DNA from: a virus
Lineage: Duplodnaviria > Heunggongvirae > Uroviricota > Caudoviricetes
Length of the DNA: 64,000 nucleotides
Virus record (IMG/VR): IMGVR_UViG_3300028591_000080
Location: 1 to 64,000 of that record
Strand: one strand, 5' to 3'
Position 1 is the stretch's first letter, and each line of letters opens with the position of its first letter. Under the pieces are notes generated by a model, which was not told the origin of the DNA, searched no databases, and saw only the letters and a program-made list of their open reading frames with translations. Position numbers and translations under genes: made by a program. This document shows positions 1-3,047 of the stretch, one piece after another.

Positions 1-74
1 TCCGGATTAGAGGATTCGAACCTCTGACCCCTTGGTCCCAGGCCAAGTGCTCTACCAAGCTGAGCTAAATCCGG
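1..74 (-). tRNA. tRNA-Pro(TGG); CCA end lies outside the window
   Basis: Cloverleaf CCGGATT/AATCCGG, anticodon arm CTTGG-CCTGGGA-CCAAG, T-loop TTCGAAT; C at position 33. Confidence 0.9.
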
Positions 75-75
75 A

Positions 76-151
76 TGGTGGACAGACTAGGAGTCGAACC
101 AAGTTATCCTGCTCTTCAGGCAGGCGCACCAACCGTGTATGCCATCTGTCC
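76..151 (-). tRNA. tRNA-Phe(GAA)
   Basis: GGACAGA/TCTGTCC acceptor, CCTGC-CTGAAGA-GCAGG anticodon arm, encoded CCA. Confidence 0.9.
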
Positions 152-156
152 ATACA

Positions 157-231
157 TGGTGCCGCCTGTTGGTAACGCTCCAACATCCCTAGGGCTTCAA
201 CCTAGTGCTAATCTATTTCAGCTAAAGCGGC
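157..231 (-). tRNA. tRNA-Phe(GAA), atypical T-loop
   Basis: GCCGCTT/AGGCGGC acceptor, CTAGG-TTGAAGC-CCTAG, T-arm GTTGG-AGCGTTA-CCAAC, CCA. Confidence 0.8.
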
Positions 232-314
232 ATTTATATAAGTATTAAATTTTAAGCTGCTAAATCGTGTACTTAAGATAAACATCGCTTTAACTCCTTC
301 TTTAATATTTTTAA

Positions 315-390
315 TGGTGCTCCGTGCAGGACTCGAACCTACAGCCACAATCTTGTAGGGATTGTAGTCTCCCAGTTGACGTAACGGAGC
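315..390 (-). tRNA. tRNA-Val(TAC)
   Basis: GCTCCGT/ACGGAGC acceptor, CAATC-CCTACAA-GATTG, TTCGAGT T-loop, CCA; C33. Confidence 0.85.
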
Positions 391-489
391 AAATACGATG
401 GACTTTGATTTTAATGAACTAGTTATTTTTATATGCTTGTTAACAAACCCCTAAACAAACCACGCATATAGGTACCACTAGCATACCTA

Positions 490-582
490 TGGCGTCGAGT
501 GTAGGATTCGAACCCACGGACGGCTCATCACCGTCAACGGTTTTCAAGACCGTCGCAATAAACCAGACTCTGCCAACTCGAC
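490..582 (-). tRNA. tRNA-Ser(TGA)
   Basis: ACGGT-CTTGAAA-ACCGT, long variable arm, G73, CCA. Confidence 0.92.
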
Positions 583-598
583 ATTAATATTTAATTAT

Positions 599-675
599 TG
601 GCGGGGACTGCAAGATTCGAACTTGCGACACGTGGATTAACAGTCCACTGCTCTAACCAGCTGAGCTAAGCCCCC
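599..675 (-). tRNA. tRNA-Asn(GTT)
   Basis: GTGGA-CTGTTAA-TCCAC, canonical D and T arms, CCA. Confidence 0.93.
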
Positions 676-761
676 ATTAACTTGGCCTAACTATTATATT
701 CACCCAAAGAACTTTATTAGATTTTAGAAATAAGTATAGGCTCTATGTTATTAAATTTTAG

Positions 762-837
762 TGGTGGAGCCGGTGGGAGTCAAACCCACAACAGTCAGTT
801 TGCAAAACTGTCTCGCTATCTCAGAACATGCGGTCCC
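762..837 (-). tRNA. tRNA-Ala(TGC), atypical
   Basis: G3:U70 pair, CAGT-TTTGCAA-ACTG, weak D-arm, T-loop TTTGACT, CCA. Confidence 0.7.
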
Positions 838-913
838 TGGTGGAGAAGACGAGGCTCGAACTCGCGACATCTAGCTTGCAAAGCTAGCGCTCTCCCAACT
901 GAGCTACAACCCC
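838..913 (-). tRNA. tRNA-Ala(TGC)
   Basis: G3:U70, CTAGC-TTTGCAA-GCTAG, CCA; two T:T mismatches in the acceptor stem. Confidence 0.88.
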
Positions 914-976: not shown

Positions 977-1120
977 ATTATTAATAAAAATAAAAAACGT
1001 AACCATCTAGCTACGTTGAACAAAGGGAATATATGTAAAACAATCTATGGAACTGTTACTGATACTTTTATTCATTGTAGCTTAATTTTTGTTAAGCTAC
1101 ATCTTTCAGTAACTTAACTT

Positions 1121-1255
1121 CTATTTATTTGAATTACTATAATCGGCATCATACCCATTCGCATTAGGCGCATCGAAATAACCAAACGGATTAACGTTTG
1201 AAGAGACATAGTTATTAAAATTCCAAGATACATTTGTCATTAAAACTGTTCTCAT
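1121..1255 (-). CDS. 44-aa Asn-rich peptide
   Basis: AGGAG RBS, ATG, MRTVLMTNVSWNFNNYVSSNVNPFGYFDAPNANGYDADYSNSNK, TAG; late-type box at 1301-1310. Confidence 0.55.
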   Translation of the reverse strand: MRTVLMTNVSWNFNNYVSSNVNPFGYFDAPNANGYDADYSNSNK

Positions 1256-1300
1256 TATTTCATCTCCTAAATAGATTGTTGATATCTTTTTGATATCATT

Positions 1301-1345: not shown

Positions 1346-1981
1346 ATTAAATATGCTTAATAATAACTACTTATTAGACTTTCATCTTATTTCATTATTA
1401 AGGTAGTTATTTGACTACAGTGACGATAAGTCTGAGCTTAAAGGAGCTACCTCTAAACTTCTTACCGCGGTCTAGCACTGAGAGGACTCATTACCTCTAA
1501 CTTTCACCGAGTATTCAGAAATAATTACAATCATTATAAAAGTTCCATGCTTTTAAGTAAGGGTTGTTCTTCTTTGTATTCGACAGATACGGCTACTCAC
1601 ATGTAAACTTCTCTTATATCCCTATTACTAGGTATTCAACTGTCAAGTCCCTTATGGATTTTCCTAGGTTTGAATAAGTTTTCCAGGCTTATTCCTAACT
1701 AGGATTCATATAACTTTTGGTTATCATCTATTGTGGAACCGAGAAGAATCATGTCTTAACTCTAATAATAACAAATACACTAACGACTATCGTAATTCTT
1801 CTTTGAAGATTGTGTCCGGTTTGATTTCAATATATACTTCCGAATCGACTTGCCATCATAGGCTATCGTCTATGAACGAAGATTTTTTGCAAGCTACGAA
1901 TCTTTGTCAGCCGCTATCCTAGCACCGTAACAAACGGTCATTCACTAGGGTAATAGGTAATCATTATTAAGCATATTTAAT
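1346..1981 (-). ncRNA. Large structured ncRNA, ROOL-like
   Basis: ~30-bp terminal helix (1346-1376 with 1951-1981) whose G.U pairs form only on the minus strand; many internal hairpins; no convincing ORF; TG-TATAAT promoter just upstream; adjacent to tRNA array. Confidence 0.7.
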
Positions 1982-2000: not shown

Positions 2001-2106
2001 ATATTTTTTAAATTTTTTCATATAATATAAATAAATTTGGCCGAGACTTAGGTTTTTCCACTTAGCTAGTTCCGAACTTACTAGCACCAAATCATTTTAC
2101 ATTTAT

Positions 2107-2135
2107 ATTATACAATAAATTTTTGATTTTGTAAA
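2107..2135 (-). promoter_or_regulatory. Sigma70-type promoter TTTACA-17-TATAAT with A-tract UP element
   Basis: Exact 17-nt spacing, TG before the -10. Confidence 0.75.
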
Positions 2136-2189
2136 TATATTTTTTAAAAATTTTTTAATTTTTTGAAGTTTTTGATTAACTTCACTACT

Positions 2190-2218
2190 AATATACAACA
2201 AAATCTTAAATTTGTAAA
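2190..2218 (-). promoter_or_regulatory. Second tandem sigma70-type promoter TTTACA-17-TATATT
   Basis: Near-duplicate of 2107-2135. Confidence 0.7.
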
Positions 2219-2995: not shown

Positions 2996-3047
2996 AAGAG
3001 AACATAGACAATGTAATAATACAAAGCCTATGTTAAAAATTTAGCAA

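Follow-up and report, generated by a model that had tools for sequence, protein, structure and literature searches.

Does the large structured RNA that lies beside a tRNA array at the start of a recoded phage genome belong to a known family, and does its closeness to a suppressor tRNA have a meaning? The window considered here is a stretch of 64,000 nucleotides from the start of an IMG/VR virus record, which measures 230,252 bp and is rated complete by CheckV. An initial annotation, made from the sequence, had proposed at positions 1346-1981 a multi-hairpin noncoding RNA that was either a member of the ROOL family or a representative of a new class. The evidence discussed below indicates that this segment of the minus strand is very probably a functional ROOL RNA gene (RF03087) of a 230-kb phage that recodes TGA and has a T4-like portal.

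Identity, fold and homologues of the RNA

The family assignment follows from a search with Infernal and Rfam, the check that the initial annotation had itself proposed. The RF03087 model matches the minus strand of the window at 1356-1973 with 252.4 bits (E = 2e-56), which exceeds the gathering score of 99.1 by a factor of 2.5, and the match covers positions 1-574 of its 574 positions. A search of the whole genome with the Rfam model revealed this single copy. Including the full closing helix that joins its ends, the gene (1346-1981, minus strand) measures 636 nt, which is within the ~550-660 nt expected for the family. Its DNA sequence found no match among 50,697 deposited phage genomes. Because the model is matched over its full length and so far above the gathering score, the option of a new class is rejected. 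A new large structured RNA resembling ROOL in size and context only could account for a score below that of most sampled ROOLs, for the replacement of one model hairpin and for an extra insert. However, it has next to no chance of being correct, since all model positions are aligned, each motif that is invariant among 18 ROOLs is found in the window copy, and four other loci with scores in this range are nevertheless of full length. What is new here is one more gene of a known family, a clear member in a typical context.

The departures of this copy from the consensus are the following. Most sampled phage ROOLs score between 310 and 348 bits, and L052, L010, L038 and L043 are in the lower range of the window copy. 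The 11-pair hairpin at model positions 113-145 is unmatched, and a different segment of 30-40 nt is found in its place, which appears as a 27-nt insert in the alignment. There is an insert of 19 nt after model position 72, an optional hairpin near model positions 445-459 is missing, as it is from several other copies, and several non-standard pairs are flagged in the Rfam alignment. One apical stem of ROOL has been described as "not always conserved" (PMC12286853), and the length of the apical stem goes with the formation of hexamers vs. octamers in the cryo-EM studies (PMC12286853, PMC12990946). The replaced hairpin and the insert suggest that the window ROOL may deviate from the solved cages in some of its contacts and, as its hairpins are unmatched to the cryo-EM stem numbering, the number of copies in its cage is unpredictable from sequence.

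The ends of the RNA are held together by a long duplex, P1. In the minus-sense RNA, the 5' strand at 1981-1951 pairs with the 3' strand at 1346-1376 in 25 consecutive pairs, followed by a one-base bulge and five further pairs (-32.2 kcal/mol). Towards its inner end, the 25-pair run contains two G.U pairs; their equivalents on the plus strand are A.C mismatches, and the plus-strand version of the helix contains a 3-nt internal loop and is weaker (-29.4 kcal/mol). The ~30-bp end-to-end helix and the strand-specific G.U pairs reported in the initial annotation were thereby both recovered, the latter being valid in the minus-sense RNA only. Its four internal stems (CCUAG/CUAGG, ACCGU/ACGGU, GAAUAAG/CUUAUUC and AGAGG/CCUCU) are also all present, within paired columns of the Rfam model. 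Since P1 starts 8 nt outside the start of that model on the 5' side, 1346-1981 are the better gene limits. Long terminal duplexes are general among these RNAs, the best ones comprising 27-45 pairs in 18 phage ROOLs, with unbroken runs of ~25 to >35 pairs in several of them. The entire minus-strand RNA has a minimum free energy of -159.3 kcal/mol vs. -130.9 +/- 4.9 kcal/mol for 20 shuffled sequences (z -5.8); the plus strand of the same region yields a z of -4.1.

The most conserved hairpin of the family is located at 1428-1468 (minus strand). It contains invariant columns of an 18-sequence alignment, its stem covaries, and the palindrome AGCU (plus-strand positions 1445-1448) is found in the loop. 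A pattern derived from this hairpin retrieved 87 IMG/VR loci, 19 of which were scanned with Rfam. ROOL was above the cut-off in 18 of these 19, and most lie within tRNA arrays on the same strand. The alignment of 18 phage ROOLs, made with MAFFT and analyzed with RNAalifold, recovered only part of the published structure; still, double changes were found in 61 of the 75 RNAalifold pairs at a mean column identity of 52%. Covarying pairs in homologues, by which the initial annotation had proposed to judge the RNA, were thus found; the cmscan output itself contains nested pairs only. The alignment, in which the window sequence is included by construction, has 72 invariant columns, and the motifs AAUAG, GUAGCC, UCUGAAU, GUGAAAG, GCUCAGAC, GGUAGCUCC and UCAGAC are present in the window ROOL.

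The closest homologue is the ROOL of L052 (IMGVR_UViG_3300028591_000126), which is 95% identical across the whole RNA. The two copies differ at eight positions within consensus pairs, and all of these belong to four double compensatory changes (A-U to C-G, A-U to G-C and, twice, C-G to U-A), so that no consensus pair is broken. Three further double changes are located in local hairpins of the predicted fold, bringing the total to at least seven. Most of the substitutions and indels between the copies are found instead in a variable linker of 70 nt (1521-1590, minus strand), which is scrambled with indels relative to L052. It lies between the conserved GUAGCC and UUCUGAAU motifs and was aligned to an unstructured, low-confidence part of the model; in the solved cage, the variable linker of ROOL is a disordered loop on the inside (PMC12286853). 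This pattern bears on the question whether the window copy might be a decaying relic that has lost expression or assembly. Its lower bit score, the non-standard pairs and the replaced apical hairpin would fit such decay, but the stem changes relative to L052 are compensatory while the linker drifts, the -10 element of the promoter is kept in L052, and three tandem promoters are located upstream of the gene (see below). A relic is therefore very unlikely.

In another phage contig, locus L008 (IMGVR_UViG_3300032038_000273), a complete tRNA-Phe(GAA) gene at 1954-2027 is located inside the linker of a full-length ROOL (1600-2195, 326.5 bits). A tRNA inside the RNA has been reported for GOLLD as well, and in the literature searched there was no mention of one within the ROOL linker. 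At two other loci, matches of ~80 nt to the tmRNA/tRNA clan (L069:7793-7873 and L040:2471-2553) lie ~50 nt or less from the ROOL end and may represent tRNA-like elements attached to ROOL. Finally, an 88-nt partial match to OLE RNA (L042:2050-2137), just above the cut-off with 53.4 vs. 50 bits and probably due to chance or to tRNA-like sequence, is located within the array of tRNA genes on a 402-kb phage contig with a ROOL and two CUA suppressor tRNAs.

The RNA island and TGA recoding in the host phage

The ROOL gene is part of an island of RNA genes. A tRNA array (1-913, minus strand) begins ~430 nt downstream of it on the same strand and consists of eight genes, one of them a weak copy, in the order Pro, Phe, Phe, Val, Ser, Asn, a weak Ala-like copy and Ala; the record begins inside the tRNA-Pro gene. 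The weak copy (762-837, minus strand) is a degenerate second copy of a tRNA-Ala(UGC)-like gene, in which some acceptor-stem bases are mismatched; it was detected by ARAGORN at a lowered threshold only and was absent from the Rfam results. At the other end of the record, a tmRNA gene is found on the minus strand (G000 228,754-229,128, i.e., L089:10755-11129) with an Rfam score of 86 bits and a tag that, according to ARAGORN, ends in AALA. If the two ends of the record are joined, this gene would adjoin the tRNA array, and the island would then comprise the array, the suppressor tRNA and the tmRNA.

The suppressor is a UCA tRNA, a reader of UGA, encoded at 2900-2995 on the minus strand. The initial annotation had placed ROOL ~0.9 kb from this recoding tRNA, and the measured distance is 0.92 kb; the tRNA array and the phage context that it described are also real. 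The acceptor stem of this tRNA consists of seven pairs and its T stem of five, the discriminator is a G, CCA is encoded, and there is a long extra arm, the loop of which (GUCCAAAC) presents the tryptophan anticodon CCA in a setting that resembles an anticodon loop. A classification as a serine-type tRNA, based on the long arm and G73, was considered and not upheld.

TGA is read through in this phage, and its packaging genes for the portal and the large terminase need this read-through. The reading frame remains open for at least 60 codons past TGA in 62% of the long ORFs, vs. 6% past TAA. One portal-protein HMM match spans an in-frame TGA, and the large terminase is whole only when four TGAs are read; the structural alignment with the T4 portal stops short of the in-frame TGA site. 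In-frame TGA is concentrated in two blocks of the genome, with 18 long ORFs ending in TGA in the first 64 kb (window 6180-61966) and nine between 92 and 115 kb, compared with just two between 115 and 230 kb.

The transcription unit and the proposed tie to recoding

The initial annotation credited the RNA with a promoter of its own, and this was borne out. A sigma-70-type promoter at 2021-1993 (minus strand) consists of ATGAAA, a 17-nt spacer and TATAAT (-10 at 1998-1993), with TTG directly preceding the -10, and it ends at 1993, 11 nt before P1. Its -10 element is TTGTATAAT. The block TATTGTATAATATAT is identical in L052, where TTTACA-17-TATAAT is read at the same place. The motif TTGTATWAT occurs at 43 sites on the coding (minus) strand of the genome, i.e., at ROOL and at 42 others, often just past a terminator, and it is found also before the UCA tRNA gene (as TTGTATTAT, at 3024) and before the SIS gene (3673).

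Two further promoters are located in tandem upstream (2107-2218, minus strand), i.e., TTTACA-N17-TATAAT at 2135-2107 and TTTACA-N17-TATATT at 2218-2190, within an 83-nt direct repeat. Of the TTTACA-N17-TATAAT class, 31 copies are present in the genome, and 23 of these are on the minus strand between 148.9 and 175.4 kb, approximately one per small gene; its copies in the window are just the two upstream of ROOL. The 148.9-175.4 kb block looks like an early-gene block. The packing of this promoter class in the block and the near-absence of in-frame TGA from 115-230 kb suggest that the promoters are early ones, from which ROOL would be transcribed strongly and at an early stage.

A segment of ~60 nt between two of the promoters (2036-2095, minus strand) was considered as a candidate for a closed hairpin RNA. 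It has a 6-pair closing stem and a hairpin with a T-loop-like loop and is present as a single copy. It was rejected, as its fold is no better than that of shuffled sequences (z -0.6); no Rfam family matched it at E <= 1.

Downstream of ROOL, the unit contains an ORF of 44 codons (1124-1258, minus strand), which is preceded by a GGAG ribosome-binding site and by the motif GCTAAATTA at 1309-1301. A hairpin between ROOL and the ORF overlaps this motif (1309). The ORF, its ribosome-binding site, the motif and the hairpin are all kept in L052, with divergence in the middle of the ORF. As GCTAAATTA is found mostly upstream of structural genes in the genome, the small ORF probably belongs to the late genes. 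An intrinsic terminator at 986-1017 (minus strand), with a 9-pair stem and a T run, ends the unit formed by ROOL and the small ORF and is conserved in L052. The two loci thus share the promoter -10, the downstream small ORF and the terminator, after which a tRNA-Ala(UGC) gene follows in both, whereas they differ in the linker, in the upstream gene and in the other tRNAs of the array.

The short distance between ROOL and the UCA tRNA would be explained if ROOL were functionally tied to the recoding of TGA in the phage, for example by aiding the code switch. The TTGTATWAT type of promoter is indeed common to both genes, and a suppressor tRNA was found in the fetched flank of six of the 87 ROOL-motif loci, all six being among the 23 loci with at least seven tRNAs. 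However, the promoter motif is shared with the 42 other sites mentioned above, most ROOL loci are without a suppressor tRNA, and the six that carry one have differing anticodons (CUA, UUA and UCA). Furthermore, ROOLs are also found in bacterial chromosomes and megaplasmids with the standard code (PMC12990946), and the L052 locus has no such tRNA in its assembled part; a search of the L052 record, at 56% completeness too partial to be informative, did not recover the UCA tRNA. A functional tie to recoding is thus extremely unlikely. Given the small number of ROOL loci with a suppressor tRNA, their differing anticodons and the situation at L052, no specific tie is seen. The closeness of the two genes looks like a side effect of the location of ROOL in tRNA islands, and both are residents of the tRNA islands of large phages.

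Probable cage assembly and relation to known RNAs

In published structures, ROOL RNAs assemble without protein (PMC12286853, PMC12990946). The env-120 ROOL forms an octamer with D4 symmetry, 280 Å across, that was stable at 12.5 nM (PMC12286853). The ROOL of E. faecalis is an octamer and that of L. salivarius a hexamer, and two planes are connected by a symmetric kissing loop of 4 bp (reviewed in PMC12990946); intersubunit contacts are conserved (PMC12286853, PMC12990946). By homology with these RNAs, the window ROOL likely forms an RNA cage too, which would probably be composed of six or eight copies. The AGCU loop of its most conserved hairpin could correspond to this kissing loop; the palindrome fits such a contact, and the base preceding GCU in this loop is an A in 53 of the 87 loci and a C, giving CGCU, in the other 34.

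The following sequence of events can be envisaged. Host RNA polymerase would transcribe ROOL strongly and early from the proximal TTGTATAAT promoter and from the two upstream consensus promoters, the class of which otherwise heads the small-gene block at 149-175 kb. The closing helix would join the ends of the RNA. Double-strand RNases cut perfect duplexes of 30 bp, and P1 may therefore also be a site at which longer or read-through transcripts are trimmed. Kissing loops, the palindromic AGCU among them, and A-minor contacts would then link six or eight monomers into a hollow, closed cage, and the 70-nt linker would lie on its inside. Such a cage might serve the take-over of translation by the phage and could, for instance, hold or shield tRNAs, parts of ribosomes or other molecules, but this last step is a guess.

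Alternatively, the window RNA might be a genuine ROOL that is active in monomeric form, for instance as a scaffold or a ribozyme acting on the neighboring tRNA transcripts, with the cage being incidental. The location of ROOLs in tRNA arrays and the tRNA-Phe in the linker of the L008 copy are compatible with this possibility, and both co-transcription with tRNAs and "sophisticated biochemistry" were brought up by Weinberg et al. in their description of the family (PMC5737381). However, the number of highly conserved nucleotides in ROOL is low for a ribozyme (PMC5737381), three different ROOLs self-assemble, that of env-120 down to 12.5 nM, and the contacts between their subunits are conserved. 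Also, no neighboring protein is common to the 86 other ROOL loci: when the products of six neighboring genes (the 44-aa ORF, DUF5662, SIS, an SNF2 helicase and two small proteins) were compared with these loci by tblastn, no match was found, and a search for related loci with the SNF2 helicase found none. Action as a monomer is thus unlikely, and assembly into a cage is the preferred reading.

What such a cage would contain is a different matter. The authors of the cryo-EM studies suggested that it encapsulates tRNAs, ribosomes or other molecules, and ROOL is dispensable in L. salivarius (PMC12286853). For the window ROOL, any particular cargo is very improbable. A specific version, in which an early and very abundant cage holds or shields the phage tRNAs, including the UGA reader, or traps a host translation factor during the take-over of translation, may be mentioned as a very long shot. 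If it were correct, ROOL would be part of the machinery that allows the TGA-bearing late genes to be read, and the tRNA-Phe in the linker of the L008 ROOL would represent the same cargo principle made covalent.

The window ROOL adds a gene to a family of solved structure, and its value lies in its setting. It is found in a complete 230-kb genome, in a unit with three promoters, a 30-bp stalk of the kind that could be processed and a terminator. This defined transcription unit and the RNA island around it make the locus a well-defined case for studying the timing of ROOL in infection and the contents of the cage, if any.

Among known large RNAs, GOLLD (RF02032) is similar in being a large, ornate RNA of phages and prophages that is located near tRNAs and makes RNA-only cages, but its sequence and fold are unrelated to those of the window ROOL. 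The initial annotation had suggested GOLLD as a second family to be searched for; its model found no match in the window (E <= 1) or in the genome, and it was equally silent in every genome searched, 14 controls included. With ROOL as defined by Weinberg et al. (2017; RF03087, PMC5737381), the window RNA shares the match over the whole model, the long P1, the multi-junction fold, the covarying stems and the variable linker, as well as its phage origin and the same-strand tRNA array alongside, and with 636 nt vs. a family mean of 581 nt its length is typical. It differs from the family in its lower score, the replaced model hairpin 113-145 and the 19-nt insert after position 72, and in its setting, i.e., a TGA-recoded 230-kb phage with a tmRNA and three tandem promoters upstream of the gene.
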